Origin: Candidatus Nanosynbacter sp. BB002
GTDB lineage: Bacteria; Patescibacteriota; Saccharimonadia; Saccharimonadales; Saccharimonadaceae
NCBI RefSeq assembly: GCF_037013405.1
Contig: NZ_CP146064.1
Coordinates: 720,001 to 752,000, forward strand
Direction of reading: 5' to 3'
DNA length: 32,000 nt
The position numbers and the translations under genes were made by a program. This document shows, piece after piece, positions 3,002-29,666 of the stretch. The notes under the pieces were generated by a model. It saw only the letters and a program-made list of their open reading frames with translations. It was not told where the DNA came from and searched no databases. The stretch's first letter is position 1. Every line of letters begins with the position of its first letter.

Positions 3002-3033
3002 ATTGTTCTTTTAGTACCTCAAGTCCAGTCTCT

Positions 3034-3042
3034 ATTTTACCA
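3034..3042 (-). promoter_or_regulatory. Candidate extended -10 promoter (TGGTAAAAT) for the ABC exporter operon
   Basis: The reverse complement of 3034..3042 is TGGTAAAAT (TGn + TAAAAT), 32 nt upstream of the ATG at 3001. No strong SD in the short leader. Confidence 0.35.
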
Positions 3043-3112
3043 TAATATGAACCATTCGTCACAAAGCCTCATTGGACAAAACTATCTGCTGGACGTATAC
3101 TATTTTTAGTGT

Positions 3113-3189
3113 CGGGGTGTGGCGCAGCTTGGTAGCGCGCACCGTTCGGGACGGTGAGGTCGCTGGTTCAAATCCAGTCACCCCGACCA
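3113..3189 (+). tRNA. tRNA-Pro (anticodon CGG), CCA encoded
   Basis: Hand-folded cloverleaf. Acceptor CGGGGTG/CACCCCG (7 bp), D stem GCGC/GCGC, anticodon stem CACCG/CGGTG with loop TTCGGGA (anticodon CGG at 3147..3149). Variable loop AGGTC, T arm GCTGG-TTCAAAT-CCAGT, discriminator A, then CCA. Confidence 0.95.
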
Positions 3190-3257
3190 TGGGAATTATT
3201 TGAAGCGCATGTTCACATACGAGAACCTCTGGCGACCACGAAAGCAAAGGAGGTTGT

Positions 3258-3725
3258 ATGCAGCGGCGAGTTAATGTACGCGGAATTATCGTAAGCGATC
3301 AGGGCGAGATTTTTTGCCAACAATTGACCGCGAACGACGGCAAAGGGCGGAATTTTTGGTGTACGCCGGGCGGCGGCTTGAAACGTAGCGAAAGTTTGCT
3401 GGACGGTTTGCATCGGGAGATGATTGAAGAAACGGGCGTTAAGCCAGAGATCGGTAGGTTGTTATTTATACAACAATTCACCGAGTCAGGCGAGCAATCA
3501 GCACATGGCCCGAACGAGCAATTGGAATTTTTCTTCCTCATCACCAACTGGCAAGATTACCAGCAGATTAACCTGGAGCAAACATCACACGGCGTCGAGG
3601 AAGTAGCCAAGTGCGGCTTCGTCAATCCGAAGACGACGCGAATTTTACCAAGCTATTTGACAGAAGTCGATCTGGACTGGTTGATTAACAAATCAACTGA
3701 CGTTCACATCATGAGTGAGCTATAA
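3258..3725 (+). CDS. NUDIX hydrolase
   Basis: Nudix box GGGLKRSESLLDGLHREMIEETGV matches GX5EX7REUXEEXGU. SD AAGGAGG lies 4 nt upstream of the ATG. Confidence 0.9.
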   Translation: MQRRVNVRGIIVSDQGEIFCQQLTANDGKGRNFWCTPGGGLKRSESLLDGLHREMIEETGVKPEIGRLLFIQQFTESGEQSAHGPNEQLEFFFLITNWQDYQQINLEQTSHGVEEVAKCGFVNPKTTRILPSYLTEVDLDWLINKSTDVHIMSEL

Positions 3726-6647: not shown

Positions 6648-7468
6648 GATTCAAGCTCCTTTTTCTTCATCGATTCAAGCGCTGCGGCACCAAAATGCTT
6701 GCGAATGAGATTGTCATATCGACCATCTTTTTTCATCTCCGCCAGCACTCGGTTAATTTTTTCCAGCAAGTCATGGTTGTTGTTTTTGATGGCAATCGCA
6801 TAATGCTCGCTCGACAACTCACCTGGCAAAATTTCTAGGTCTGGAAAGCCAGCCGTGTATTGAGCCGCAGGCGCATCATCCAAAATAACTGCCTCGACGC
6901 CGCCAGCATTAAGCTCCGTCAACACACTTGGCGCAGTTGGGAATTGTGACACTTTGGCGCCGGTAATTTTTCCAGCCAGTGTATCGCCTGTCGTGCCTAA
7001 CTGTACACCAATTTTCTTACCCGTCAGTTGATGTCGATTCCGAATTGGACTGCCTTTCTTGACAATGATCCGCTGCGAGGCTGAATAATACGGCTCAGAA
7101 AATAACGCGTTTTTAGCGCGCTCCGGCGTCACCGACATGCCAGCCACTGCCATGTCAATTTGCCCTGATTCCAGCGCTGATAGCAATCCGTCAAACGACA
7201 TGTCTTCAATCCTCAATTCTTTATTCATGCTGCGGGCAATCTCCTTGGCTAGATCAACATCAAACCCAACAATTTCATTGCCCTGCTTGTACTCAAACGG
7301 CTTAAACCCAGCATTAGTACCCATCACCAACACATCATCACTCTTACCAAATCCACCTTCGCGCTGCAAAATGTCAAACGCCATAAAGCCAATCAACGCC
7401 ACAAATAGTCCAAGACCGATCCACCAACTAACTCCAAAGCCGTGACGTCGCGTTTTCGTTCCGTTCAT
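6644..7468 (-). CDS. Amino-acid ABC substrate-binding protein (family 3), TM-anchored rather than lipoprotein
   Basis: Family-3 solute-binding pattern (GFKPFEY...GFDVDLAKEIA...DMAVAGMSVTPER...). The N-terminal hydrophobic anchor WWIGLGLFVALIGFMAF has no lipobox cysteine. Confidence 0.88.
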   Translation of the reverse strand: MNGTKTRRHGFGVSWWIGLGLFVALIGFMAFDILQREGGFGKSDDVLVMGTNAGFKPFEYKQGNEIVGFDVDLAKEIARSMNKELRIEDMSFDGLLSALESGQIDMAVAGMSVTPERAKNALFSEPYYSASQRIIVKKGSPIRNRHQLTGKKIGVQLGTTGDTLAGKITGAKVSQFPTAPSVLTELNAGGVEAVILDDAPAAQYTAGFPDLEILPGELSSEHYAIAIKNNNHDLLEKINRVLAEMKKDGRYDNLIRKHFGAAALESMKKKELES

Positions 7469-7475
7469 GCTTAGT

Positions 7476-7504
7476 AGTATACGCGCTTTATTACAAAATG
7501 ATAA
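7476..7504 (-). promoter_or_regulatory. Candidate promoter of the amino-acid ABC operon: TTATCA-N17-TATACT-N7-ATG
   Basis: Read on the minus strand: -35 TTATCA (7504..7499), 17-nt spacer, -10 TATACT (7481..7476), 7 nt, then the ATG at 7468. No SD. Confidence 0.4.
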
Positions 7505-7536
7505 GCCCTAAGTTCAGCATTGTTCCTCACGTATAG

Positions 7537-7545
7537 TGGTATAAT
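7537..7545 (+). promoter_or_regulatory. Extended -10 promoter TGGTATAAT, 8 nt upstream of the ATG of the sulfatase-family gene
   Basis: TGGTATAAT at 7537..7545, then TAGATAGT, then the ATG at 7554. No SD. Divergent from the ABC operon promoter. Confidence 0.45.
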
Positions 7546-7553
7546 TAGATAGT

Positions 7554-9074
7554 ATGAGCAAAAAAATCCTCAGCCGTTTCTGCAATTTTCGCACTTTTGT
7601 CCGCATCAGCATCGTTCTAATGCTGGCTCTCAGTGCAATATTCATCGTCGCCAGTCAGTACAAAACCGTGCAATTTCGCGACGCCAAAATTGATGAGATT
7701 TTGTTCTATTTTAACAACGGCCTGGCGGGCGGACAATCCAGTAGCCTAATTTCAGCAGTCTGGGGCAACGTGCCATACGCTATTGGATTATTTGTCATCT
7801 TACTACTCCCTATACTTCTCAAACTACGCTGGAAAACAATGCCATTTCGGCTGCGCCACCAGATCTATTACGCAAGTGGCATTTTTGTTGTCAGCCTGAC
7901 ACTCCTGGCACAAAGCTTCAGCATCCCAGCCTATGTCAGCGCTCTTACTCAATCATCAAAAATCTACGACAAGCACTATGTTGATCCGCGCGGCGTCAAA
8001 TTGACCTTCCCTAGCACCAAACGTAATTTGATTTATATCTATGTTGAATCGCTAGAAAATACGCCCGCCTCCAAAGCCAACGGCGGCATGAGCGACAAAT
8101 CAGTCATTCCGGAGCTGGAGAAATTGGCGCTGACCAACACTTCATTTTCACACCAAGCCTCAGGACTCGGTGGCGCCCTACCTGCCCATGGTACCACCTG
8201 GACAGTCGCCGGCATGACCGCTCAGTCCGCTGGCGTGCCACTCAAAGACGGCGGCGTGTTTGGCGGCCGCGACCGCAACGGCATGGGTGATTTCAATAAA
8301 TTCTTGCCCGGTGCTTATACTTTAGGGCAAGTACTCCAAAAAGCTGATTATAATCAATCATTTATCATGGGCTCAGATAAAACTTTTGGTGGGCGCGATA
8401 AGTTACTAGAGCAACATGGCGATTACCACATCATCGACTTCACCTACGCTCAACAGCACGGTTTGATTCCTCAGGACTACAAAGTATGGTGGGGCTACGA
8501 AGACAAAAAGCTTTTCCAATTTGCCCGCGATGAAGCCACTCGCCTCAGTAAATTAGACAAGCCATTTAACTTGCAAATGCTGACCGTTGACACGCACTTT
8601 ACTGACGGCTGGCTGGACAGTGACACCTGTAAACAACAATTTGAAGCAAAATACGACAATGTACATGCCTGCGCTTCCAAACAAATCACCGCCTTCGTCG
8701 AGTGGGCTAAACAGCAACCGTTTTACGCCAACACTACTATCATCATCAGTGGTGATCACCTCGGTATGCAAACGCCATATTATGAAGAGAAGATCGCCGG
8801 CGCTCCCTACCAACGAACCGTCTACAACGCCTTCATCAACCCTGCCGTTCAGCCAACTCACGCCACCAACCGCCAATTCGCCACCTTTGATATGTACCCA
8901 TCGACCTTGGCAGCACTGGGTGTGATAGTAGATGGCGACCGCATGGGGCTGGGCACCAATTTATTCTCAAATCGCCAGACACTAGTTGAACAGTTTGGTG
9001 GTATCGATCAGCTCAACGCTGAGCTCAGCAAACGCTCAACTTACTACGAACGGAAAATCTTAAGCAGTTCGTAA
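7554..9074 (+). CDS. LTA synthase family / phosphoglycerol-transferase-like sulfatase-domain membrane protein
   Basis: N-terminal TM helices followed by an extracytoplasmic alkaline-phosphatase/sulfatase-type domain (YIYVESLE..., HGTTWTVAGMTAQ, TVDTHF, IIISGDHLG). The architecture resembles LtaS/MdoB. Substrate not inferable. Confidence 0.65.
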   Translation: MSKKILSRFCNFRTFVRISIVLMLALSAIFIVASQYKTVQFRDAKIDEILFYFNNGLAGGQSSSLISAVWGNVPYAIGLFVILLLPILLKLRWKTMPFRLRHQIYYASGIFVVSLTLLAQSFSIPAYVSALTQSSKIYDKHYVDPRGVKLTFPSTKRNLIYIYVESLENTPASKANGGMSDKSVIPELEKLALTNTSFSHQASGLGGALPAHGTTWTVAGMTAQSAGVPLKDGGVFGGRDRNGMGDFNKFLPGAYTLGQVLQKADYNQSFIMGSDKTFGGRDKLLEQHGDYHIIDFTYAQQHGLIPQDYKVWWGYEDKKLFQFARDEATRLSKLDKPFNLQMLTVDTHFTDGWLDSDTCKQQFEAKYDNVHACASKQITAFVEWAKQQPFYANTTIIISGDHLGMQTPYYEEKIAGAPYQRTVYNAFINPAVQPTHATNRQFATFDMYPSTLAALGVIVDGDRMGLGTNLFSNRQTLVEQFGGIDQLNAELSKRSTYYERKILSSS

Positions 9075-9146
9075 GTGTATCACCTCACACTGTCTCTTGC
9101 CGCAACGTAACAATACGGGGCTCAGCCCACAGAAAAAGGAGGACAT

Positions 9147-11288
9147 ATGCCACCAACCATGAACCAAGAAGAAACCACCAAGCCCCTCGAGCAGTTTGGG
9201 ACGGACATCACGGCACTAGCGCGTGAGGGCAAACTCGACCCAGTAATCGGCCGCGATGAGGAAATTCGCCGCACCATGCAAATCCTCAGCCGGCGCACTA
9301 AAAATAATCCAGTCCTCATCGGCGAGCCGGGCGTCGGTAAAACCGCCATCGTCGAGGCCCTGGCGCAGCGCATCGTCAAAGGCGACGTACCGGCGTCACT
9401 AAAGGACAAGCGGCTGATTAGCTTGGAGATCTCCAGTTTGTTGGCCGGCGCGAGCTTTCGCGGTCAATTTGAAGAGCGCCTCAAAGCAATTTTGAAAGAA
9501 GTGGAAGAAGCGGCTGGCGAAATTATTTTGTTCGTTGATGAAATTCACACCATGGTTGGCGCCGGCAAAACCGAAGGCAGCATGGACGCTGGCAATATGC
9601 TCAAACCCGCCCTGGCGCGCGGTAAACTACACATGATTGGTGCGACGACGTTGGCGGAATATCGCCAGCATGTCGAAAAAGATGCAGCCCTAGAGCGACG
9701 CTTTCAGCCAGTCTATGTCGGCGAGCCAAGTTTTGACGACACCGTGGCGATTTTGCGCGGTCTGAAAGAAAAATACGAAGTTCATCACGGCGTTAAAATC
9801 TCTGATGATGCCATCGTGGCGGCGGCACGGTTATCCACCCGCTATCTGCCCGATCGCTTTTTACCTGACAAGGCCGTTGACCTCCTGGATGAAGCGACCA
9901 GCGCTCTGAAGATGCAACTGGAGAGTGTGCCGATTGCGCTGGATCGGCTGAATAATCGCCGCTTGCAGCTGGAAATTGAAGAAGCAGCGCTGAAAAAAGA
10001 CAAATCCGACCACGCCAAGGCACGCAAAGAGGAGATTAATCAGCAAATCGCCGACCTTCGAGCTCAGGCCGAGGTGATTGACAATAAATGGCAGCACGAA
10101 AAAGACATTCTCCAAACCGTCAATACCGCTACCGAAAAAATGGATAGTCTGCGCTCACAGTTAGAAATCGCCGAACGCGACGCTGATCTGGCCACCGCCA
10201 GCCGCATCAAATACGGCGACCTGCCAGAGCTGGAGAAAAAGCTGGCTGCCGCCCGCCAAGAACTGGCCGCCATTCCGCCGGCCGACCGCCTGCTGCGCGA
10301 AGAAGTCACTCCTGACGACATCGCCAGCGTAGTAGCGCGCTGGACGGGCATCCCCGTGGAGCGGCTGATTGAGACCGAATCCAGCAAATTGACCAAATTA
10401 GAGGAACACATCAGCACCCAAGTGATTGGTCAAGACAAGGCCATTGCCGCCGTGGCCAGCGCCATTCGCCGTTCGCGCGCTGGACTTGCTGACACCAACC
10501 GGCCGATCGGTTCCTTCCTCTTCCTCGGCCCTACAGGCGTGGGCAAAACAGAGGTGGCCCGCAGCCTGTGCCGTGAATTATTTGACGACGAACACGCCAT
10601 GATTCGTATCGATATGAGCGAATATATGGAGCGACACGCCGTAGCCCGCTTGATCGGTTCGCCGCCAGGCTACGTTGGCTATGACCAAGGTGGGCAACTC
10701 ACCGAAGCGGTGCGCCGCCGCCCCTACAGCGTGGTCCTGTTTGACGAAATCGAGAAGGCCCACCCCGATGTCTTCAACGTACTCCTTCAGGTGCTCGACG
10801 ATGGCCGCCTGACTGATGGCCAGGGGCGAACAGTCGATTTCTCCAACACGGTCATCATCATGACCAGTAATGTCGGCTCACAGGCGATTATGGACTTTTC
10901 TGGCGACGATTTGTCGGCACTGGATAATCAGATGCTTGAGGTGTTGCGCCAACACTTCCGGCCAGAATTTCTTAACCGCATTGATGACATTGTTATCTTC
11001 GACCGTATTCGACCAGAGGCCATGCGGGCAATTGTCGATGTCCAACTGAAACGCGTTGCTCGCCAAGTCAAAGACAGCCGCGACATCACCCTGGAGTTTG
11101 ACGATAGCGTCCGCGACATGTTGGCCCGCGACGGTTATGACCCGGCCTTTGGCGCCCGTCCGCTGAAGCGCTTGGTACAAAAGCGGGTGCTTGACCCGCT
11201 GGCGCTGGAGCTGATCGACGGACGAATTCATGACGGCATGGCGGTGACTGTCAGTGTCGCTGATGACCGGGTGACCTTTCACCAATAG
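9147..11288 (+). CDS. clpB: ClpB-type AAA+ disaggregase lacking the N-terminal domain (713 aa)
   Basis: Two AAA+ modules (GEPGVGKT / LFVDEIH; GPTGVGKT / [10 protein letters not shown]) separated by a coiled-coil M-domain ([20 protein letters not shown]...), which is the ClpB hallmark. The protein starts at the linker just before NBD1 ([29 protein letters not shown]). Strong SD AAAGGAGG. Confidence 0.93.
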
Positions 11289-17848: not shown

Positions 17849-18075
17849 TCCACCTGATCAATCTCAAATATCTTGTATTTCGAAGAAGTACCACGCAGTA
17901 ATTTTACCTTTGAGGGCGCCACGCCGAGATGCTTTGCTAGTAGTTTCGCCGCCGCTAGATTTGCCCGACCTTCAATGGCTGGCGCCTTGGTGTAAATCGT
18001 CAACGAACCGTCGTCATTCGTGATGACTTCTTCACGATGGCGGGAGTTGGGTTTGAGATGGACGGAGATTTTCAT
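17845..18075 (-). CDS. DUF167 (YggU-like) small protein
   Basis: 76 aa with the pattern ...KAPAIEGRANLAAAKLLAKHLGVAPSKVKLLRGTSSKYKIFEI, characteristic of the UPF0235/DUF167 family. Confidence 0.75.
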   Translation of the reverse strand: MKISVHLKPNSRHREEVITNDDGSLTIYTKAPAIEGRANLAAAKLLAKHLGVAPSKVKLLRGTSSKYKIFEIDQVD

Positions 18076-18094
18076 AGTTCAATAATCATTACCC

Positions 18095-18697
18095 TCAAAA
18101 TGACATCGCCTCCAATTCCCGCGGTAAAATCTCCTGCACCTCCACCGAACCTACCACTAAATGATAGCCGTATAAGTCCGACGGCAAATCACGCTCGACC
18201 GAACGCCAATTAACTGGGCGATTTTCATCAAAATAATCCAGTAGTTCTGCGTTCAAAAAATGGTCGCGCGGCAAGTCAACTGAACCATCCTGATTGATGA
18301 CCAGCGCTATCGACAAACCCGATGTCACGCCATCTTCATTTTTAGCATACGCCGCCGTCACCAGATGGACCACTGGCTCAAATTCCAACACTGATTGATC
18401 GCTCGCCTCCACCTGCGCCTGACCGCGACGCGCTAGCTGCTTATTAATTTCTGTTGTTAATTCCTCAACACTCGGCTTACCGTCAACCGCTCGGCAATAG
18501 TCGCAACCATCTGCCGCTTCGACATATTCCAGCAGTAAATCCATATCGACGTCAGTGTCTTTAACACCATGCTGCGACAATTGCTCCACCATTTCATGCA
18601 GCGCGCCTAGCAAACTATAATCATTAGCATTTCTAGCAGCATCACCGATGCGGATAATGGCGCGAGCGATGGTGATAGGATTTTTAGACTTACTCAT
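18095..18697 (-). CDS. Hypothetical acidic protein (200 aa), no recognisable domain
   Basis: Long ORF with normal composition, D/E-rich, with one CxxC (GCDYCR). It has its own TACAAT-N6-ATG element (18709..18695) immediately after the hsdR stop. Confidence 0.6.
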   Translation of the reverse strand: MSKSKNPITIARAIIRIGDAARNANDYSLLGALHEMVEQLSQHGVKDTDVDMDLLLEYVEAADGCDYCRAVDGKPSVEELTTEINKQLARRGQAQVEASDQSVLEFEPVVHLVTAAYAKNEDGVTSGLSIALVINQDGSVDLPRDHFLNAELLDYFDENRPVNWRSVERDLPSDLYGYHLVVGSVEVQEILPRELEAMSF

Positions 18698-18733
18698 ACA
18701 CCTATTGTACCCTGATCTATCATAATTAATGTA

Positions 18734-21700
18734 TCAATCCAACAAACTCGCTCCGCCACCAGCGTCATACGTCGCGCGTTTATAGCTCCACTCGTTACCA
18801 TAACGCTTGGCTTGCTCCAATACCATATCGGTTGCCAATGACTGCTGGTCTGGCGGATATCCATACTTTGCCAACGTCTTTTTGACGTTAACTTTCAGTT
18901 TTGCCTGAACATTCCTGCGCTCTGCCCAGTCAATCGTGGCATCACGACGCACCTGCTCTAACAATACTTTCGCGATATCACGTAGCTGCGCGTCACCCAG
19001 TACTTCGCGGGCACTGCCATTTTCAACCAGCGCATCGTAAAAGATAATCTCATCCTCACTGAGGCCATCAACTGCGCCATTCTCAACAGTTTGGCGCACT
19101 TGCTGTCCGATGTTGATTAATTCCTCAATCACCTGCGCCGCCTCAATCGTCCCATTTCTATACCGCGTCAAGGCTTGGTTGAGCAAGTCAGAGAACTTCG
19201 TATCCTTGGCATAATTTCTCGAAAATCGTAGCTTGATTTCATCAGCGAGCAGCTTTTGCAGAGCTTCCACCGCCAAATTCTTGCGCTCCATGTTACGAAT
19301 TTCCGCCAAAAACTCATCACTCAAAATCGACAGTTCCGGCTTTTCTAATCCCGCCGCCTCAAACACATCAACCACACCCACTGGCGCAATTGCTTTATCA
19401 ACAATTTGTTTCAGCGCGCTTCGGTACTCAGCATCAGTCACAACTGTCGAGCTCGACACTTTCTCTAGCCGAGCTTTCACCGCCTGAAACAGCGCCACTT
19501 CCTCACGAATCTTCAACGCCTCGGGCCTCGGCATAGCCAGCGCAAAGGCTTTACTCAGTTCCAAAACATGCTGTTTCAATCGCTTCTCACCATCTTCCAA
19601 CCCTAAAATATATTCCTCGGCATCCAAAATAATTTGCAGTTGCCGGTCGGTTGGCGCCGTAAAATATCGCTGATAATCAAAGTTACCAAATAAATCGCGC
19701 ACCACCTCGTAACGCATCTGCATCTGCGCCACCGCCTCAGCAATATCAAGCTGCGGTGCGCCCCGCCCGCCGCTTTGCGTATAGTCAGAAATAGCATCGC
19801 GCAGCGCCCCTGCCACACCCAGATAGTCAACCACCAAACCACCGGTTTTTCCAGGGAACACTCGGTTGACTCGTGCAATTGCCTGCATTAAATTATGATC
19901 CTTCAATGGTTTATCCAGATACATAGTGTGCATATTTGGTACATCAAACCCCGTCAGCCACATATCGCACACAATCACGAGCTCAAGCGGATCGTTCGGA
20001 TCTTTGATGCGCTTTTCGATCGCTTTCACCCGCTGTTTATTACGAATATGCGGCTGCAAATAGTTAGGGTCGCTAGCGCTACCGGTGATAATCACCTTGA
20101 TCGCACCACGTGCGTCATCATCACTATGCCAATCCGGCCGATACGCCACGATTCTCTCATACAAATCAGCCGCAATACCGCGACTCATCGTCACGATCAT
20201 ACCCTTACCGCTCAGCACACTTTGCCGAGCCTCAAAATGCTCAATGATATCTAGCGCGATAGTATTCAGCCGCTCGCTATTACCGACGATGGCTTCTTTT
20301 TGTGCATACTCGGCCTTCAACGCATCCTGACGACTCAGTTCTTCGCCCTCCAGCAAATCATCAACTTCCTTATCCAGCCACTGCCGCGTTGCCTCGTCCA
20401 TATTCAAATCAACCAGCCGACTCTCATAATAAATCGGCACTGTTGCACCATCTTTCACCGCCTGCTCGACATCATAAATATCGATATAGTCGCCAAACAC
20501 TGCTGGCGTTGACTTATCATCCGTTTCAATCGGCGTACCCGTAAAGCCAATGTAGCTCGCACCCGGCAAGGCATCACGCATATATTTGGCATAACCATAT
20601 ACTAGCTGGGCGTCGCTAGCTCGAACATGTGCCTTCAAACCGTACTGGCTACGATGCGCCTCATCTGCCATCACGATGACATTGCGTCGATCGGTCAAAA
20701 TTGGCAATTTATCCTCGTCATCCTCAGGCGAGAACTTCTGGATTGTTGTAAAGATAATCCCACCTGCTTCGCGCTGCAGTAGCTTCCTGAGTTCACTGCG
20801 CGAATCAGCTTGTTTCGGATCTTCTCCCAGCAGCTCGCGACAGGCGCTAAACGTACCGAATAATTGACCATCAAGATCATTACGATCCGTCACCACCACG
20901 ATGGTTGGGTTATGCAAATCGCGCGATTTCATCAGCTTACCAGTATAAAACACCATACTCAAGCTCTTACCCGACCCTTGCGTATGCCAAACCACGCCAG
21001 CCCGTTGGTCACCGCGTTCACTACTAGCCGCCAGCGTCCGATCAAGCGCTTTATTCACCACCCAATATTGATGATAAGCGGCAACTTTTTTGATTAGTTT
21101 ATCGCCGTCGCTCCGCTCAAATACGATAAAATTCTGCACCATATCCAGCAAACGTTCAGGCGTACACGCACCGCGCAGCAGCACTTCCAACATCGGCACA
21201 TTGCCAACTTCTTTCTCGCCGTCAATCGTTTTCCACGGCATCATTCGTTCCAGCGGGCTGGTTATCGTCCCTATTTCCGCCTCTAGTCCATCACTGGTTA
21301 TACACAGTTCATTGAACCGAAACAAGTCGCTAATCTCTCGCTTGTACGTCTGGATTTGCTGATACGCCGCTACCAAATCCGCCTTCGTATCAGCCGCATT
21401 TTTTAGTTCAATCACCACCAAGGGTAGTCCATTCACAAATAGTACAATATCTGGCCGGCGATTATAATCGCCCTGCAAAACCGTCAGCTGATTGACCGCC
21501 ACAAAATCATTGTTTTTGAGCGAGGTAAAATCAACCACCCGTACAATATCGTGTTTCACTTCACCACTTGATGTACGGTACTGCACCGGCACGCCCGCCA
21601 CTAACAACTGATGGAAATCATGATTATTCTCAATCAAGCTTGGTTTACTAATCTGCGTCAAACGCCGCATCGCTTCATTCAAGGCTGGTCCTGGAATATG

Positions 21701-21868
21701 CGGATTGAGACGCACCAGTGTACTCTGTAGCCGCCCAGGTAACACCACCTGCCTGAGCTCACGCTCAGCCGCAGCACCATCTGGACCAATATCTGGTCCG
21801 TGTAGAATTTGCCAGCCGATACTAGCCAGGACGTCAAGCGCGTATTGTTCGATGTGGGATTCGGTCAT
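18734..21868 (-). CDS. hsdR: Type I restriction enzyme R subunit (HsdR)
   Basis: N-terminal PD-(D/E)xK nuclease motif (RPDIVLFVNGLPLVVIELKNA). SF2 helicase motif I is HTQGSGKS and motif II is MADEAHRSQ, with later motifs LTGFD and QAIARVNR. I prefer the ATG at 21868 (MTESHIEQY) over the track's GTG at 21886. Confidence 0.95.
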   Translation of the reverse strand: MTESHIEQYALDVLASIGWQILHGPDIGPDGAAAERELRQVVLPGRLQSTLVRLNPHIPGPALNEAMRRLTQISKPSLIENNHDFHQLLVAGVPVQYRTSSGEVKHDIVRVVDFTSLKNNDFVAVNQLTVLQGDYNRRPDIVLFVNGLPLVVIELKNAADTKADLVAAYQQIQTYKREISDLFRFNELCITSDGLEAEIGTITSPLERMMPWKTIDGEKEVGNVPMLEVLLRGACTPERLLDMVQNFIVFERSDGDKLIKKVAAYHQYWVVNKALDRTLAASSERGDQRAGVVWHTQGSGKSLSMVFYTGKLMKSRDLHNPTIVVVTDRNDLDGQLFGTFSACRELLGEDPKQADSRSELRKLLQREAGGIIFTTIQKFSPEDDEDKLPILTDRRNVIVMADEAHRSQYGLKAHVRASDAQLVYGYAKYMRDALPGASYIGFTGTPIETDDKSTPAVFGDYIDIYDVEQAVKDGATVPIYYESRLVDLNMDEATRQWLDKEVDDLLEGEELSRQDALKAEYAQKEAIVGNSERLNTIALDIIEHFEARQSVLSGKGMIVTMSRGIAADLYERIVAYRPDWHSDDDARGAIKVIITGSASDPNYLQPHIRNKQRVKAIEKRIKDPNDPLELVIVCDMWLTGFDVPNMHTMYLDKPLKDHNLMQAIARVNRVFPGKTGGLVVDYLGVAGALRDAISDYTQSGGRGAPQLDIAEAVAQMQMRYEVVRDLFGNFDYQRYFTAPTDRQLQIILDAEEYILGLEDGEKRLKQHVLELSKAFALAMPRPEALKIREEVALFQAVKARLEKVSSSTVVTDAEYRSALKQIVDKAIAPVGVVDVFEAAGLEKPELSILSDEFLAEIRNMERKNLAVEALQKLLADEIKLRFSRNYAKDTKFSDLLNQALTRYRNGTIEAAQVIEELINIGQQVRQTVENGAVDGLSEDEIIFYDALVENGSAREVLGDAQLRDIAKVLLEQVRRDATIDWAERRNVQAKLKVNVKKTLAKYGYPPDQQSLATDMVLEQAKRYGNEWSYKRATYDAGGGASLLD

Positions 21869-21883
21869 ATTATAGTAATTATA
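21869..21883 (-). promoter_or_regulatory. Possible internal promoter in the RT-hsdR gap (two TATAAT boxes)
   Basis: The minus strand reads GTGTATAATTACTATAAT-ATG. The first TATAAT is 9 nt from the ATG and the second abuts it. No SD. hsdR could equally be expressed by read-through from upstream. Confidence 0.25.
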
Positions 21884-21894
21884 CACCAGATGCC

Positions 21895-23448
21895 CTAGCT
21901 TGGTATGTCTCTAAAAAGGTCAACCTCCTGACGATCAATAGATATTTTATTCGTCTCCCTGATGCCTTGTAGCATATCGACGTCAACTATACTTGTGTCT
22001 CTAACTGTTTTCATTATATCGTCCTTTAGCCAATCAATACACCAGATAATAGAATTATCAATATATGCTCTTTCACTGACTAACCGGGTTAATAATTCAT
22101 TAAATTGCAAGTTCGGATCAATAGAGTAAGATACTCGCTGCAACCAAATATCTAATAAGCCAGTGTTAGGTATAATCTTGAACTTATCAAGAATTTTTTG
22201 AACAAGGAGTCCCCTCCTTGACTCACTCGCCCCACGGATAGTTAGACTCGCAACCGCCATCGCCATATTGTAATACTTAGGGTTTTTAATTGCCATATTA
22301 ACTACAATACTCAGCATAACTTCTGGTTTTTCATAATCACGTAAGCTTTTCCCTTTATCTAAGTAATCAAGAAGCTCCTCGTGAAACATATTTAGCTGGC
22401 GAGACACCATACCTGAATTAGGATATTTATAACTAGCTGCATAAATCTGCATTAACCATTTTGCAAAATTATCTTTTTCTTTCTTTATATTCGGTATGAA
22501 TAATTCTTCGATCTTATCCTTTTTAATAGAACTCAAGACTATATCGCTGCTCTTTTTGGTTTTCTGTGCATTTAATCTGAGACCAAGTATTGCTAAAATT
22601 TCAGTTAACTCTTTCAGTATACGAGCTCCTAGATCTAGCCTATTGGTAAAAATTCGATAGTCATCCCTGTAGCGAACAATGGAATATTCTCTTTTATCAA
22701 TATCTTTTACAGCTTGAGCTAAAAGACTATCAGCGTATGCAAAGATAAGCTCAGCAATAAAATCAGAAAGAGTATTTCCCTGGGGTATCCCGTTTGTCTG
22801 TCGATGATTCATCATCTGAAAATACTCATCAATTTTACCTCCCAGAGATTTTTTATCACGATTAGCATAAGCCTCTTCTTTGCCATGAAGAGCCCATGAA
22901 ATAGAATGCGTATATATTGATCCATAACAGTTTGCAACATCAGTTTCTAATACATATTGAAAATCAAGACCTTTAGTCGCACAGTTTTGTTCAAATTTCT
23001 CCCACCAAGCACGTATTTGCTCCGCTTTCGCGCTTTTCTTTTTTGAAGGTTGCATTGGAATACTAGCAACTTCAACATTACAGTCCCTCCTTAACTCAGA
23101 AAATCGCTTTTTTATAACACTCCAATTATCCTCTTTGGTAATATAATGCACTAACCCTACATAAAGAACTGGATTTATTATCTCAAATGGCCTCCAAGCT
23201 AATTCACCATCTTTGTTGCCGTAAATCACTTTATTTACATCATGTCTATCTCTTGGGTCTTTCTTCTTACGACTACCCTCTTCTGGATCAAAAAAGTAAT
23301 TAACATCATAACCACCCATCTTACTTGACACGGCTTGAAGTATTGGGTCAAAGTTAAAATATTCAGGCAAATCAAAGTTTACATAACTTTTACCGTCCAG
23401 CAAAAAAGCACGAGCTTGCTTATGATCAAATTCTAATATATTAGCCAT
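21895..23448 (-). CDS. Reverse transcriptase (RNA-directed DNA polymerase), Abi/UG-like defence-associated type with a C-terminal alpha-helical domain
   Basis: RT motifs by my residue count: motif 1/2 WRPFEIINPVLYV (~85-97); motif A LETDVANCYGSIYTH (D170); motif B NGIPQGNTLSDFIAELIF (~219-236); motif C VRYRDDYRIF (Y260-D263, DNA 22671..22660); motif D/E LGLRLNAQKTK. The ~215-aa C-terminal extension has no recognisable thumb/X/En/integrase motifs. TAATG overlap with hsdS. Confidence 0.9.
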   Translation of the reverse strand: MANILEFDHKQARAFLLDGKSYVNFDLPEYFNFDPILQAVSSKMGGYDVNYFFDPEEGSRKKKDPRDRHDVNKVIYGNKDGELAWRPFEIINPVLYVGLVHYITKEDNWSVIKKRFSELRRDCNVEVASIPMQPSKKKSAKAEQIRAWWEKFEQNCATKGLDFQYVLETDVANCYGSIYTHSISWALHGKEEAYANRDKKSLGGKIDEYFQMMNHRQTNGIPQGNTLSDFIAELIFAYADSLLAQAVKDIDKREYSIVRYRDDYRIFTNRLDLGARILKELTEILAILGLRLNAQKTKKSSDIVLSSIKKDKIEELFIPNIKKEKDNFAKWLMQIYAASYKYPNSGMVSRQLNMFHEELLDYLDKGKSLRDYEKPEVMLSIVVNMAIKNPKYYNMAMAVASLTIRGASESRRGLLVQKILDKFKIIPNTGLLDIWLQRVSYSIDPNLQFNELLTRLVSERAYIDNSIIWCIDWLKDDIMKTVRDTSIVDVDMLQGIRETNKISIDRQEVDLFRDIPS

Positions 23449-24584
23449 TATATCTTAATCTCTCCGGAAATTAATTTTGGTAAAAGCAAATCACGAATGT
23501 TAGATAAATAATCTATTTGCTTCTTGTTTTTATGTATCATATCAAACAATGGTCGCACTCTCTGCTCAAAAGCATTAAAATCGCAATCTGGTAAATTAGC
23601 AATCTCCAAAAGCTCTATGTGCTTTGGATAAATATGCGGCTGACCAGAGCCAGTTTGCATATCATATATCTCTTTTTGCTTATTCTTGAGGAATAAATAG
23701 TAGGTATAAACATATTTGGTAATTGTTGAGTCAATGTACGAAGAGTCTGCCGACCAGACTGGTTCACCCCAAACAGATACAAAGCCAGCATTTGCTCCGG
23801 ATGCACTTATCGTAATAACTGGTGCAACTGTGTTTGCTTTATTATGAAATCCAGCTGGTTTCAGGCCACCGCTAATAACCGGCGTGTCACCACAAATCAT
23901 ATCTCTAACTTGCAAACTTCTACCTCTTTTTGGGTGAAACTTTTTTCCTAAAGGTATGGTCTGTATATTACCATTACTCTGCTTAGCTTTATCAACAAAA
24001 TAATGACGAAAGAGAGCTTGACCGAGCTGCTCGAGGGTTTCATTCATGTGGCGATTGAGCTCGATTTTTTCATCAAGACTGCCGAGGATATTGGCAATTT
24101 TCTTTTGTTGGTCGAGTGGTGGCAGATTAAGTTCCATATTAGGCACCGCTTTGACTGATAAGTGCATTACTGTACTGCCATTGCTATGTGCTAGCATATA
24201 CTCTCGAGTAATTGGAGACTTTAGATAATAAAAAAGATACCTAGGATCAATGACTTCTGTATTTGTTACTATTATTTTCGACAGATCCAACGAAAAGCAA
24301 GCACTCCTGCCTATATCTGGCATAATTATAGGACTACCGATAATTTCACGATTCTGAGTAAGATCTGTGTTTGCTATCAGGATGTCGCCAGACTCAACAT
24401 ATTGCGATGGTTTTATTTGTCCTGCGTAATATTTTATGCCATCAGCATTATATCCCCCACCCCTAGCAACAGACTTTAGGTTCACAAAAGCAATTCCATT
24501 TTCTGAATTAGAATAATCGGCACTTCTGTATGAAATACCTTTGATAATCTCTGCAACCTCACCAAGTAGGATCGTTTTTGTCAT
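23448..24584 (-). CDS. hsdS: Type I restriction enzyme specificity subunit (HsdS)
   Basis: Two target-recognition regions separated by the conserved central helix (LPPLDQQKKIANILGSLDEKIELNRHMNETLEQLGQALFRHYF). The conserved C-terminal helix is IDYLSNIRDLLLPKLISGEI. Confidence 0.92.
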   Translation of the reverse strand: MTKTILLGEVAEIIKGISYRSADYSNSENGIAFVNLKSVARGGGYNADGIKYYAGQIKPSQYVESGDILIANTDLTQNREIIGSPIIMPDIGRSACFSLDLSKIIVTNTEVIDPRYLFYYLKSPITREYMLAHSNGSTVMHLSVKAVPNMELNLPPLDQQKKIANILGSLDEKIELNRHMNETLEQLGQALFRHYFVDKAKQSNGNIQTIPLGKKFHPKRGRSLQVRDMICGDTPVISGGLKPAGFHNKANTVAPVITISASGANAGFVSVWGEPVWSADSSYIDSTITKYVYTYYLFLKNKQKEIYDMQTGSGQPHIYPKHIELLEIANLPDCDFNAFEQRVRPLFDMIHKNKKQIDYLSNIRDLLLPKLISGEIKI

Positions 24585-26638
24585 TTTTTTATTGCCCTTT
24601 CGGTAGCCTCATCCGCGTTCGTATAATCAATTGCAAGCCTGTCGCGTTCAGTTTTTAATTCATTTTCGATAAACTTATGTCTACACTCCACGTCTGCAAA
24701 TATATCACTCCATTTTCTAACATAGATTTTACAATTATCCTTTGAGAATATTAGCCCTTTTTCTTTCTCCCCATGCCCTTTATTGGTGTCAATTTCACCC
24801 TCTATGTAGCCTGATTCATTAAATTTATTACCAACAAGCACAAAATCCCAGTAAGTATTATCACCATTAAACCGAGAGTCTGAAAATATTGTTCGTTGAT
24901 ATCTCTTGATCTGAGACACTTCTTTCTCCCCAAGCAAAACAGCGGGTCGTTTCAGCTCTATTACTAGGTTATTTATGCGATCGTTTTCAATACTTTTTCT
25001 ACATAAAAATAAATCCATCTCCTTATTCTTATCTGGAGATTCCATATTCACATCTTGCTTTTTGCCGCCACGTAGTATATATAGATATTCTGACAATGCT
25101 TTTTCAAATTTAGCTTCAGTACTAGAAACAAGATTATATTCCTCTCCAAAAACCCAAAAATTATGATCCAAAACTTTTTGCACATGATCAACCTCACGAG
25201 AATTGAAGCTATCATTAAAGACTATCTCCTTTAGAGCATCAATTGTAGTATAACGGTTTTGAATCATCTTAATAGTTTGAATTATGGAGTTTAGTTTATT
25301 CACCTTTAATAGGTCCGCTAATTGTTTCTGTTCTTGATCATCAAGCCGCACAACAGCGTCGATAATTGTATATATCTGATCGCGCTGATTTGAATCTAGA
25401 AGTGCGTTTAGAAGATGTATAAAAGTCTTTCTCTGCTCTATACTCGAATTACCTTCACCAAATATTTTCGGTTGGATTTTATAAATATCTTTTATGAGAG
25501 TTTTTAGTTCGTTATTGCGAGGAATTTCCCAGCTGTTATTGACTTCAGGAATAATGTTCTCTTTTTCATACTTTTCAACGAGATCATCTGCCATCTTTTG
25601 GAGATGCGGACTACGCATGCGACGTAGGTAATCGTTAATTTCGGAAATAACATATTTAAATTCCTCGTCTCGCTTACTATTAAACTTTTGCTCTTTATTT
25701 TGTAGAGTGCTTTGGTCATAATCAATTTTGTCCTCGTATGAGAACATGTCAAAATAATCACTTCTTATATATACGCTATGATAAAATTTATCGCCTTTAT
25801 TGTTCAGTAGGGTTGTAGATTTATAGTTCTCCTTGCCAGTTGAATCTATTAGATAATATCGCGAGAATTCTTTATTTAGTTTTTTCTTCCACTGAATATA
25901 CTTAACATCAAAGCGAGTTGATGTTGCATCGTGAATAATCTTCTCATCCCTTTCACCAGCTATCATTTCTCTATAGTCAAGAGGACTACCATTAATAGAT
26001 ATAGAGAACATCTTATCTTTGAATAATTCTAAAAACCAACAAAATTCCTGTAACAGGTATTGTTTTACGGTAGTCTCAATATTGCCCGAAGACAGCTCGC
26101 GTATCCCCTCAAATGTAACCTTTGTTGACGTCCCATGCTCATATGGTATTTCAGAAACAGGCGAATGAGCACCCGTATAACTATGCAAATCATCAGACTT
26201 GATTTCTATATCATATTTATAAAGCTTACTGTTTTTTTCATATACCGTTGTCCATCGTGCAATATTTGCAAACGTAAAAAAAGTAAGTCGACCCACTCCA
26301 TTTTTGCCATGCACCAAAGAATGATGCCTGGAGTCTGTCTTATTTAGCGCCTTTTCCGATTCATGAAAAGGCTTAAACTTCACAGACAATAAACCCTGAG
26401 GTATTCCACTTCCATTATCTGCTATAGTAATACTTCTTAACGATCCTAACTCATTTTCTTCATAGCTAATGTCTATACTAGTTGCACCTGCATCAAATCC
26501 ATTCCAAATATATTCGGCGATTGATTCCTGTGGCGAATAAGCACTTAATATAGATTTAACTCCGTCTCCACCAAGCTGAATCTCGTCCGAAACAATTGCT
26601 TCTGCTAGACTATCTTTTAATACTGTACTGTTAGTCAT
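24581..26638 (-). CDS. GHKL (Bergerat-fold) ATPase fused to a C-terminal PD-(D/E)xK nuclease-like domain (685 aa)
   Basis: N-box [16 protein letters not shown] (ExxxNxxDA), G1 box IADNGSGI (DxGxG), G2 box [11 protein letters not shown]. The C-terminal part has ...[15 protein letters not shown]...EMDLFLCRK-x12-NLVIELKRP...SQIKRYQ (D542/E561/K563 by my count; the E561 codon is at 24958..24956). It overlaps hsdM (ATGACTAA) and hsdS (ATGA). Confidence 0.85.
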
Positions 26639-28124
26639 TTTTATATGATTCTTTTATTCTTTTTAGGTTTATAGAGATAGATTTTTCTAACTCACGGCTC
26701 TTCGCAAACTGCCCTTCAAGCTCAGCCGTTAACCGGGCAAATTTCTCGACGAACGGCTCACCGTCTTCTTCTATTTCCTCAACGCCCACGTAGCGACCAG
26801 GTGTCAATACATAATCATACTGCTTAATTTCTTCTAGATCGGCGACTTTACAAAAACCCGGCTGATCAGTGTAATCCGCACTAGCGGTTTTGTAATCATG
26901 ATATGTCTTCGCCACCCGAGCAATGTCTTCTGCGGTTAGTTCACGGTTACGGCGGGTGACCATTTTACCCAAATTACGCCCATCGATGAACAGCACTTTG
27001 CCGTGGCGGTTCGCCCGGTTGCGCGACACGAACCACAGACAGCATGGTATGGCTACATTGAAAAATAGCTGACTCGGCAGTGTGACAATAGCGTCAACCA
27101 TATCATTAAGAACCAGCTGTTTGCGGATATCACCTTCGCCACCAGTTTGGCTACTCATACTGCCGTTTGCCAGCACGAAACCCGCCGTACCACGTGGGCT
27201 CAAGTGGTGAATCATATGCTGAATCCACGCAAAGTTAGCATTACCCTTTGGCGGTAGACCATATTTCCAGCGCGGGTCAGCCTGCAAGTGTTCTTGACCC
27301 CAGTCGCTAATGTTAAACGGCGGATTGGCCAAAATGTAATCAGCTTTCAGATCAGGGAGCTGGTCATCCATCAGAGTGTCGCCACGTTTGATATTCGCAT
27401 CAATTCCCCGAATTGCCATATTCATTTTAGCGAGTCGCCAAGTGGTTTCGTTTAGCTCCTGACCATACACTGCAATGTCGCTGACACGACCAGCGTGCTC
27501 CTCGACAAACTTCTCACTCCAGACAAACATACCGCCACTACCGCAACATGGGTCGTACACGCGCCCGCTGTATGGCTCAAGCATTCCTACCAGCAATTTC
27601 ACGATGGAGCGCGGCGTGTAGAATTCACCACCGTGTTTACCCTCGCTGTCGGCAAACATACCCATAAAATATTCGTAGACTTGACCAAGTAAATCTTTGG
27701 AGCTGGCAGTGTCGAATTTGATATTTGTAAATAAATCGATAAGTTCACCCAAGCGACGCTTATCTAGAGCTTCACGAGCATAATTTTTCGGCAACACACC
27801 CTTCAGACTAGGGTTGTCTCGTTCAATTGCCTCCATAGCACTATCGACTAGAACGCCAATTTCTGGCTGCTTGGCGCTCGCCACCAGGTGTTCCCAACGA
27901 GCCTCCTTGGGAATCCAAAAAACATTCTCCGCCAAATACCAATCCCGATCTTCAGGATCATAGTTCTCATCAATCGCTGCCTGATGTCGCACCGAAAACG
28001 CATCTGAAACATATTTTAGAAAAATCAGCCCCAATACCACATATTTATAATCCGACGAGCTGATATTACCCCGTAGTTTATCCGCCGCAGCCCACAACTG
28101 CTTTTCAAGCTCCCTTGTATTCAT
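26631..28124 (-). CDS. hsdM: Type I restriction enzyme methyltransferase subunit (HsdM), N6-adenine
   Basis: N-terminal HsdM_N-like region ([32 protein letters not shown]). AdoMet motif I is [12 protein letters not shown] and catalytic motif IV is LANPPFN. Confidence 0.95.
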
Positions 28125-28130
28125 AGATAA

Positions 28131-28139
28131 ATTATATCA
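28131..28139 (-). promoter_or_regulatory. Extended -10 promoter TGATATAAT, 6 nt upstream of the hsdM ATG (leaderless-type)
   Basis: The reverse complement of 28131..28139 is TGATATAAT, then TTATCT, then the ATG at 28124. No SD. It lies in the 28-nt gap after the radC stop. Confidence 0.5.
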
Positions 28140-28152
28140 GATTGGGGGTCGT

Positions 28153-28806
28153 TTACTCTGAGTGTAGCAGACTTTTGTAGTCAGTTTTCGTAACAATAAT
28201 ATGATCATTAAGCGTAATGCCAAGCAATTTTCCCGCTTCTGCCAGCCTATTCGTAACATCTTTATCAGCCTGACTGGCTTCCAAACCCCCACTCGGATGA
28301 TTATGCGCCACGATGATGCTGGCGGCGCGGTCGGCAATGGCATCAGCGAAGACCTCGCGCGGGTGCACCAGACTGGCCATCAGCGTACCGATAGTCACAA
28401 CCCGCTTGGCGATCAAACGATTCGCGCCGTCCAGCGTCAAGCAGACAAAATATTCCTGTTTTTTATCGCGAATGTCGGCCAGTAGCTCGACGGCTTTTTC
28501 TGGGCCGTCAATAATTGGCTGGTCGCTATCCAGCAAATACCGCCGCGCCAGTTCCAAACTCGCTAAAATCACCGGGATTTTCGCTTCACCCAATCCAACC
28601 ACGCCACGCAGATCATCATACGAAATATCGCCGCCTTTTTGACGCACAATTTTCAGCACCTCGCGCGCAATTTTACCGACATCCGCCTGTTTATTACCGC
28701 TGCCGATAATCGCCATCAAGAGTTCCAAGTCGCTCAGCCGCGCCGTACCGTAACGCACTAGTTTCTCGCGGGGACGATCATCGGGACGGCGATCTTGCAT
28801 TTTCAT
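28153..28806 (-). CDS. radC: RadC-like JAB/MPN-domain protein (UPF0758)
   Basis: N-terminal HhH-like region (RPREKLVRYGTARLSDLELLMAIIGSG) and a C-terminal JAMM motif (IIVAHNHPSGGLEASQADKDVT). I place the start at the ATG at 28806 (MKMQDRRP), which forms a TGATG junction with the crtEb stop. The track start at 28872 would overlap crtEb by 67 nt. Confidence 0.85.
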   Translation of the reverse strand: MKMQDRRPDDRPREKLVRYGTARLSDLELLMAIIGSGNKQADVGKIAREVLKIVRQKGGDISYDDLRGVVGLGEAKIPVILASLELARRYLLDSDQPIIDGPEKAVELLADIRDKKQEYFVCLTLDGANRLIAKRVVTIGTLMASLVHPREVFADAIADRAASIIVAHNHPSGGLEASQADKDVTNRLAEAGKLLGITLNDHIIVTKTDYKSLLHSE

Positions 28807-29666
28807 CACACACCCCACACCTTCATCAATAACGTCACGGTTACCACCGCCCCAGCGACATAGTTCAGCCACAAGAAACGTCGCCAGCCCGCCCGTGCCT
28901 CCGCCGAGCGTTCATCACGAATTCGTACAAACGGCAGTAGATTGATGATATATAAGCTGCCTGCAGATGCCACTGGCCATGCCGCCACACCCAGGCACGC
29001 TACCAACCCGACCGCCGCCACGTACAGCAGTATCGCTAACCAGACGGTCGACCGCGCACCAAACACCGTGGCGATGGAGCGAATCTTGGCTTCGCGGTCT
29101 GGCACAATATCCTGCACCGCACCAAACGCCTGACTAGCCATACCCCAGCAAAAAAATGCGACAGCCACCAACCATCCCGCTTGCGTCGTGCCAACCAACG
29201 AATAGGCATACAGCAGCGGACCGACAAAATGTAGACTTGAGGTCACCGAATCCAGTAATGGCACTTCCTTAGACCGCAGCCCCTTCGCGCTATATGCCAC
29301 CACAAAAAACAACACCACCGCTAACACCAACGCACTTTGCCAGTTGCCCAACAGCACCAATGCCAGCACGAATGGCAGGCATGATAGCACCGCCGACCAC
29401 ACGATCAACCGATGATATTTCCGTGGCGTCACGGCGCCTTCGACACCGCCCTTGCGGGGATTTCGCATATCTGATTCATAGTCGCACACGTCATTAATGC
29501 CATACATCAGCAAATTGTACGGGATGAGGAAAAACAGCGTACCAATAATCAGCCGTGCGTCAATAGCCCCGCCCATGACCACATAGCCCGCCGCAAACGG
29601 ATAGGCCGTATTCACCCACGACAGCGGTCGCGAGGTCATAAATAAGACGTTAATTTTTTCTTTCAC
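28806..29666 (-). CDS. crtEb: UbiA-family prenyltransferase, lycopene elongase type
   Basis: Polytopic UbiA-fold protein with Asp-rich motifs (NDVCDYESD; AVQDIVPDREA). The N-terminus SRPLSWVNTAYPFAAGY is typical of lycopene elongases. It is the last gene of a crtB-crtI-crtYe-crtYf-crtEb order. GTG start with GGAAGGGG upstream. Confidence 0.75.
   Translation of the reverse strand: MKEKINVLFMTSRPLSWVNTAYPFAAGYVVMGGAIDARLIIGTLFFLIPYNLLMYGINDVCDYESDMRNPRKGGVEGAVTPRKYHRLIVWSAVLSCLPFVLALVLLGNWQSALVLAVVLFFVVAYSAKGLRSKEVPLLDSVTSSLHFVGPLLYAYSLVGTTQAGWLVAVAFFCWGMASQAFGAVQDIVPDREAKIRSIATVFGARSTVWLAILLYVAAVGLVACLGVAAWPVASAGSLYIINLLPFVRIRDERSAEARAGWRRFLWLNYVAGAVVTVTLLMKVWGV

Follow-up and report, generated by a model that had tools for sequence, protein, structure and literature searches.

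Abi-P2 of P2-like coliphages (P2-EC30 ORF570; crystal structure 7R08, Figiel et al. 2022, PMC9508834) and AbiK of Lactococcus (7R06/7R07) are reverse transcriptase (RT)-like polymerases of UG/Abi class 1. The Escherichia coli Abi-P2 and AbiK both carry out protein-primed, template-independent DNA synthesis, and in these Abi polymerases a helical domain takes the place of the thumb and lines the channel of the nascent DNA (PMC9508834). In Abi-P2 the Y61F substitution abolishes DNA synthesis, Y46F is indistinguishable from wild type, and Tyr61 lies in the loop between the fingers helices alpha2 and alpha3 (PMC9508834). Protein-primed, template-independent synthesis of single-stranded DNA has been reported for DRT4 as well as for AbiK, and P2-EC30 Abi-P2 is cited in PMC8632793 as giving resistance to phage T5. 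The 32,000-nt stretch of Candidatus Nanosynbacter sp. BB002 analysed here (NZ_CP146064.1, positions 720,001 to 752,000; hereafter the window) carries, inside a type I restriction–modification (R-M) operon, a gene (the RT below) whose product is, judged by its sequence and predicted fold, an intact Abi-P2-family polymerase of UG/Abi class 1. The explanation that we favour, with a probability of about 0.78, is that it serves as a protein-primed, untemplated, one-gene anti-phage module, carried as cargo in the R-M operon and needing no noncoding RNA (ncRNA).

The family assignment rests on concordant profile, sequence and structure comparisons. The PADLOC AbiP2 model matched the RT with an E-value of 2e-169 and 562 bits, residues 1-513 aligning with model positions 4-484 of 489, and the runners-up were UG14 (175 bits), Drt6 (164 bits), Drt4 (149 bits) and AbiK (101 bits). 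Among PDB sequences the best match was 7R08 (E=6.8e-72, residues 3-495), and the RT was approximately 33% identical to the Abi-P2 proteins of P2-EC30 and P2-EC58 along 99% of the length. An AlphaFold2 model derived from an alignment of 45 homologues (predicted local distance difference test score, pLDDT, 90.5; predicted template modelling score, pTM, 0.91) retrieved in Foldseek the six 7R08 chains at the top of the list, with template modelling (TM) scores of 0.82-0.89 and root-mean-square deviations (rmsd) of ~3.1-3.4 Å; superposed over the whole chain, this predicted structure and 7R08 gave TM scores of 0.83/0.88 and an rmsd of 3.1 Å, in keeping with the Abi-P2 fold of RT-like fingers and palm, no canonical thumb and a helical domain at the C-terminus that makes a C-shaped channel. 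AbiK, DRT4/UG15 and DRT6, which share with the RT the membership in UG/Abi class 1 and the combination of an RT-like with a helical repeat domain, are less similar both in fold (TM 0.54-0.63) and in PADLOC score (100-164 bits versus 562 for AbiP2), and AbiA scored lower still (TM 0.43-0.45). The YRDD active-site motif carries at its variable position the arginine that is typical of the Abi-P2 group (PMC2602772). An original prediction, made from the letters of this stretch alone, had assigned the gene to the stand-alone RTs of the AbiA/AbiK/Abi-P2 class and had proposed the comparison of a model with the AbiK and Abi-P2 structures; the comparison singles out 7R08, and the assignment holds and can be narrowed to Abi-P2 by the PADLOC result, the sequence and fold likeness to 7R08, the YRDD motif and a candidate priming tyrosine, Tyr30.

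The same searches separate the RT from the RNA-dependent families, which have in common with it the RT palm motifs and an anti-phage role, and in the case of DRT9 and DRT10 also protein priming. Retrons, DRT2, DRT9 and DRT10 need an adjacent structured ncRNA, whereas the flanks of the RT contain none and offer no room for one, and the fold likeness of the model to DRT9, DRT2, retron, group II intron and diversity-generating retroelement RTs did not go beyond the RT core (TM ~0.3-0.37 with normalisation to the query). None of the NCBIfam models for Drt2-5, group II intron or retron RTs came near its cutoff on the RT. A retron identity is contradicted by the missing intergenic space, the lack of any Rfam match, a TM of ~0.3 and the score of the only matching retron model, that of the Ec67 family (15 bits, cutoff 450); a group II intron RT or maturase by TIGR04416, which covered the RT core alone with 54 bits (cutoff 300), together with the absence of a group II intron match in Rfam; and a DRT2/DRT9/DRT10-type enzyme by the Drt2 score (24 bits, cutoff 390), the TM of ~0.3 to DRT9 and DRT2, and the absence of both room for and sign of an ncRNA. 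Membership in the retron or group II intron RTs with a cognate RNA, named at the outset as the finding that would overturn the Abi placement, was thus contradicted by sub-cutoff models, TM values of ~0.3 and the lack of any detectable RNA.

All RT palm and finger motifs listed in the original prediction are intact, and a script check located each of them: TDVANCYGSI begins at residue 169, which makes its aspartate D170, and GIPQG, YRDD and LNAQKT occupy residues 220-224, 260-263 and 292-297, respectively. Pfam RVT_1 covers only residues 145-301, and the portion preceding the motifs had been taken for an N-terminal extension of ~85 aa; it proved to be the conserved Abi-P2 fingers region, which bears the loop with the priming tyrosine. 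In the model, strands were predicted at residues 73-90, 165-172 and 255-268. The C-terminal ~215 aa do lack a group II maturase domain, as originally noted, but the region is not featureless: the model is helical across residues 321-509, the full-length superposition on 7R08 takes in the helical domain, and the region corresponds to the Abi helical domain that replaces the thumb. In the HMMER alignment, counted from chain position 34, Tyr30 (LPEYFNF) aligns with Tyr61 of 7R08 (LPAYINF), while the dispensable Abi-P2 Tyr46 aligns with Phe15. Tyr30 lies in the model in a loop (residues 23-33) between helices 19-22 and 34-44, and by alignment and predicted fold it is the candidate priming residue; the priming tyrosine of AbiK, Tyr44, differs from it in position. 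P28, Y30, D170, R261, D262 and D263 are invariant among the 45 homologues (41-96% identity).

The gene lies on the minus strand, a correction to the original description, with its TAG stop codon at 21895-21897, and is tightly packed between its neighbours. The overlap of one nucleotide with hsdS was confirmed (TAATG), and this start-stop arrangement suggests translational coupling. On the other side, the 26 nt first given for the distance to hsdR apply if hsdR begins at the ATG at 21868; with the GTG at 21886, listed both among the open reading frames (ORFs) and in the source assembly, the spacer shrinks to 8 nt, and in either case the intergenic space flanking the RT does not exceed 26 nt. 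Rfam gave no match at E<=1 over positions 18000-28500 and, at the gathering threshold over the whole window, returned only a tRNA (3113-3186). Neither the hsdS/RT nor the RT/hsdR junction, folded on either strand, exceeded shuffled sequences in structure (z from -0.9 to +0.1). Since Abi-P2 needs no ncRNA, the missing intergenic space is what would be expected; the RT belongs to a structurally and biochemically characterised family, so the absence of a template RNA is not strange.

The genomic contexts of related RTs, a stronger test than the RNA searches and folding, are in agreement with such independence. In the sample of 127 fetched loci (designated by L numbers), whose ORFs were searched with the Hsd proteins of the window, several RTs occur away from any hsd gene. 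Of the closest of these, the RT of L007 (64% identity) is preceded by RadC (7299-7937) and followed by a DUF2726 gene, that of L008 (57% identity) overlaps an SLFN-type helicase gene, and those of L009 and L010 (46-47% identity) reside in integrative elements; the canonical Abi-P2 proteins are encoded in P2-like prophages, likewise with no hsd genes nearby. In L007 (5036-7296) and L008 (5765-8004) the RT follows a pair of genes for a MazG-like protein and an SLFN-g3-type helicase, with a 4-nt overlap in L008, and this neighbourhood is a second recurrent context, perhaps a different composite defence locus. DNA similarity between non-hsd relatives and the window was limited to the RT domain, the flanks being unrelated; because the RT moves as a bare ORF among unrelated flanks, it cannot depend on a flanking template, and since RTs of this clade also stand on their own elsewhere, the gene is an autonomous one-gene module. 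No gene conserved beside the RT was found in the hsdM-hsdS or RT-hsdR gaps of the RT-bearing operons, only heterogeneous cargo. The suggestion that the RT may work without a dedicated ncRNA thus gains support from the Abi-P2 placement, the Rfam and folding results and the hsd-free relatives, while the alternative offered with it, a template concealed within the hsdS or hsdR coding sequence, finds none, given the same Rfam and folding results and the lack of hsd genes in L007-L010.

The nearest RT proteins are those of Candidatus Nanosynbacter lyticus TM7x (96%) and other Saccharibacteria. At the DNA level the operon and the sequence on either side of it are 88-95% identical to three genome loci, L001-L003, one of them from the complete Ca. 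Minimicrobia vallesae genome. No match to the 10-kb operon was found by megablast among 5,426 complete E. coli genomes, and hence the locus is not enterobacterial. The ratio of nonsynonymous to synonymous divergence (dN/dS) of the RT was 0.13 against both L001 and L002, and the gene is under purifying selection. Compared with Abi-P2 of P2 phages, the RT is of the same length class (517 aa versus a construct of 541), has in its model the same two-domain fold with YRDD and a priming tyrosine in the same loop (Tyr30 = Tyr61), and shares the character of a single-gene module without ncRNA and with a GC content lower than that of its surroundings. The two differ in setting: Abi-P2 is found in the hypervariable region of P2 prophages of E. 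coli, whereas the RT is chromosomal, in a type I R-M operon of a saccharibacterial epibiont, and in a neighbour-joining tree it belongs to a large non-prophage Abi-P2 branch, apart from the P2 group.

By analogy with Abi-P2 and AbiK, the RT would most likely form trimers or hexamers, prime DNA synthesis from the hydroxyl group of Tyr30 and, needing neither an RNA nor a DNA template, elongate a single strand of random sequence, the nascent DNA being held by the helical domain in the place that a template normally takes. The RT would probably share the transcript of the operon, with its translation coupled to that of hsdS, providing a second defence layer beside restriction, and the same analogy points to a one-gene anti-phage module of the abortive-infection type.

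Association with hsdS is nevertheless recurrent. RTs of the fetched loci were clustered at 90% identity, and non-viral clusters with an informative upstream flank (n=56) were counted. An hsdS gene lies directly upstream of the RT in 14 of these, nearly always with an overlap of 1 or 4 nt, and four more show another hsd adjacency (hsdR-RT or RT-hsdM), whereas no hsd gene adjoins the RT in any of the 15 viral (P2-like) clusters. The hsdS/RT junction overlaps by 1 or 4 nt in L001, L002, L005, L013, L014, L020, L033, L034, L035, L038, L070, L076 and L079. The RTs embedded in this way are scattered through the neighbour-joining tree and do not form one clade, and the HsdR proteins of their operons fall into at least three families that are 26-35% identical to one another. 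RT and HsdR distances were significantly correlated in a Mantel test (p=0.0002), but the signal is driven by close clades with common host ancestry, and for that reason the result cannot separate co-inheritance from functional coupling. Other slots beside hsdS are filled by GHKL ATPases (window, L001 and L002), a RhuM/PDC-S05 protein (L001), a KAP NTPase/PDC-S20 (L003) and Schlafen-AlbA_2 proteins (L033 and L035). In L076 (4939-6719) a HEC-01A/HEC-01B pair (AAA_21/AAA_15 ATPase plus DUF4276; PARIS-like) is located between the RT and hsdR; this distant RT-bearing type I operon holds three defence modules. Such varied cargo agrees with the literature, in which type I R-M operons harbour embedded defence genes ('guilt-by-embedding', Payne et al. 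2024 preprint): DarTG2 sits between hsdS and hsdR in enteropathogenic E. coli (PMC12255303), a gene pair for an RNA-binding protein and an AAA-like ATPase is another published cargo of the hsdS-hsdR slot, TgvAB is embedded in a type I R-M operon of VPI-2 in V. cholerae (PMC11411939), and nearly every PrrC lies within a type I R-M system (Payne et al. preprint). The RT resembles PrrC (EcoprrI), DarTG2 and TgvAB as a same-strand defence gene in an hsd operon whose cargo varies among related loci, and with DarTG2 it shares the very slot; for PrrC, unlike for Abi-P2 polymerase cargo, a functional link to restriction is known. No description of a pairing between Abi-P2 and type I R-M was found in the literature, incompletely covered, that was consulted (a UG/Abi preprint, a review of prokaryotic RTs, Simon and Zimmerly 2008, Makarova et al. 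2013, and the Payne 2024 preprint with its supplements).

This recurrence underlies the main rival reading, which we hold to be unlikely, namely that the RT is wired to the type I complex as a guard resembling PrrC/EcoprrI, either latent on or sensing HsdS/HsdM/HsdR, and begins untemplated synthesis when a phage anti-restriction factor disables restriction. A branch of the Abi-P2 polymerases would then have been repeatedly recruited behind hsdS because the RT would monitor the restriction complex, and its release upon anti-restriction would lead to untemplated DNA and aborted infection, a chain of events that we regard as doubtful. The frequency and the tight overlaps of the hsdS-RT junction, its absence from viral clusters, its scatter over the RT tree and over several HsdR families and the embedding habit of PrrC all speak for such coupling, as does the observation that, where extra cargo is present, the RT stays first after hsdS and the additional genes follow behind it. 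However, the same saccharibacterial sub-clade includes hsd-free RTs (L007, L008 and L015), the founding Abi-P2 proteins are encoded in P2 prophages that have no hsd genes nearby, stop and start codons that overlap are a usual outcome of operon compaction, and the space between hsdS and hsdR generally takes in defence genes of unrelated kinds: DarTG2, the RNA-binding/AAA-like pair, HEC-01 and a PIN-domain pair described below, with TgvAB likewise embedded in a type I R-M operon.

Two further explanations are less probable still. If the RT were RNA-templated in the manner of retrons, DRT2, DRT9 or DRT10, which some UG/Abi RTs are reported to resemble in using ncRNAs, the lack of intergenic space would place the template within hsdS, hsdR or the 3' half of the RT gene itself. 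The last of these drew attention through an irregularity in synonymous divergence (dS): in comparisons among the window, L001, L002 and L012, dS was 0.06-0.09 in codons 251-517 (~21898-22698) and 0.18-0.39 in codons 1-250, that is, 2-7x lower, and hsdR just downstream of this block is divergent again. An embedded RNA was rejected as its cause, as nonsynonymous divergence drops in parallel (in the same four sequences), which fits a recombination mosaic and not synonymous constraint, no excess RNA folding was present in the block (z +0.49/+0.40), and relatives of 61-68% identity show no conservation of the block in their DNA; the low divergence most likely reflects a recombination mosaic. With the fold and sequence firmly within Abi-P2 and far from ncRNA-using RTs, no Rfam match, no structural excess at the junctions and unrelated flanks in non-hsd contexts, we consider a hidden template the least likely of the explanations weighed here. 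The other explanation, that the RT is a decaying passenger with no present function in the genome of the window, takes its support from relatives and composition. The RT is interrupted by a deletion of 1 nt in L003 (Ca. Minimicrobia vallesae; 8001-9553) and of 8 nt in L016 (metagenomic contig; 2071-3617), both shifting the frame; L003 also has an hsdR reading frame interrupted close to the 3' end; and an insert of 1.37 kb occupies exactly the 8-nt RT/hsdR spacer in L003 (9554-10930) and L012 (1776-3142). This insert carries two ORFs on the opposite strand, encoding a 168-aa PIN-domain protein and a 270-aa protein without family match (truncated in L003), and looks like a toxin-antitoxin-type module. 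The three central genes of the operon have a GC content of 33-38%, as compared with ~50% for hsdM, hsdR and the surroundings, which indicates that they are cargo acquired horizontally. Against decay in the window stand an intact ORF with all catalytic and priming residues, the dN/dS of 0.13 and three full-length hsd genes, and a relic is accordingly very unlikely.

Several points also weigh against the preferred interpretation of the RT as an autonomous, untemplated polymerase. Identity of the RT to characterised Abi-P2 proteins is only ~30-33%. Its recurrent place right behind hsdS could be a sign that the RT depends on the restriction complex and is not autonomous. The deletions in L003 and L016 make the RT dispensable in some strains, although they may be assembly errors. 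Finally, DRT9 and DRT10 are reported to have been thought stand-alone before they were found to use ncRNAs, and conventional RT activity was once reported for Abi-P2, as cited in PMC8632793, so that some templated activity is possible.

The operon itself runs, all on the minus strand, in the order hsdM - GHKL ATPase - hsdS - RT - hsdR, with gene ends that overlap or nearly abut (Table 1), and according to Pfam and PADLOC its type I R-M set is complete, hsdM, hsdS and hsdR being full length and on one strand. The GHKL ATPase gene shares 8 nt with hsdM and 4 nt with hsdS; the C-terminus of its product has a weak PD-(D/E)xK-like match (HSDR_N_2, E=0.0018, below the curated cutoff), and PADLOC gave no meaningful match (only SduA at E=0.009). 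Besides the window, it accompanies the RT in L002 only among the fetched loci and is therefore not a partner of the RT, but likely another embedded defence candidate. In L001 the hsdM-hsdS slot holds a different GHKL protein, of 666 aa, together with the RhuM protein. The scan for promoters and terminators in the region gave site counts not above shuffled expectation.

Table 1. Positions in the window of the RT gene, its functional elements and the remaining parts of the host operon.
Feature	Position	Strand	Description	Basis
RT gene	21895..23448	minus	Abi-P2-family polymerase; 517 aa, ATG start, TAG stop	ORF list
RT-like fingers and palm	22504..23448	minus	~residues 1-315; boundary approximate, inferred	7R08 alignment from residue 3
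C-terminal all-helical domain	21898..22491	minus	~residues 320-517	model and 7R08 superposition
Tyr30 codon	23359..23361	minus	candidate protein-priming tyrosine (LPEYFNF)	alignment with Abi-P2 Tyr61
Asp170 codon	22939..22941	minus	catalytic (TDVANCYGSI)	script position; invariant in alignment
YRDD motif	22660..22671	minus	active site, residues 260-263	script position; R261, D262, D263 invariant
hsdS stop/RT start overlap	23446..23450	minus	TAATG, one shared base	sequence
RT/hsdR spacer	21887..21894	minus	8 nt to hsdR GTG start	sequence
hsdM	26631..28124	minus	type I methyltransferase, 497 aa	HsdM_N; N6_Mtase E=7e-113; PADLOC MTase_I E=3.6e-206
GHKL ATPase gene	24581..26638	minus	MutL/MORC-like, 685 aa; second embedded cargo	Pfam HATPase_c_3 E=7e-17
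hsdS	23448..24584	minus	type I specificity subunit, 378 aa	Methylase_S; PADLOC Specificity_I E=2.8e-81, full length
hsdR	18734..21886	minus	type I restriction subunit, 1050 aa	HSDR_N, SWI2_SNF2, T1RH-like_C; PADLOC REase_I 1133 bits, full length
Candidate operon promoter	28196..28223	minus	~70 nt upstream of hsdM	TTGGCA-16-TATTAT, 10/12 consensus matches only

At the borders of the operon, a 200-aa ORF directly downstream of hsdR (18095-18697, minus strand) was matched by none of Pfam, NCBIfam and PADLOC; L001 and L002 have ORFs of 200 and 209 aa at the same place after hsdR. The ORF of the window may belong to the operon or have nothing to do with it. On the opposite border, a RadC-like JAB-domain gene lies directly upstream of hsdM (28153-28872, minus strand). 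The presence of RadC beside the RT in L007 and beside hsdM in the window hints at a shared locus from which the hsd genes were deleted or into which they were never inserted.

Purifying selection on an Abi-P2-type polymerase in the ultra-small (~0.7 Mb) genome of a saccharibacterial epibiont, an unusual host for the family, argues for real pressure from phage or foreign DNA on these organisms. The arrangement hsdS-RT-hsdR, present in about a quarter of the sampled non-viral relatives and in several unrelated type I families, offers an experimental handle on the trigger of Abi-P2, and the dependence of the RT on the state of the restriction complex, if true, would supply the activation signal of the family.

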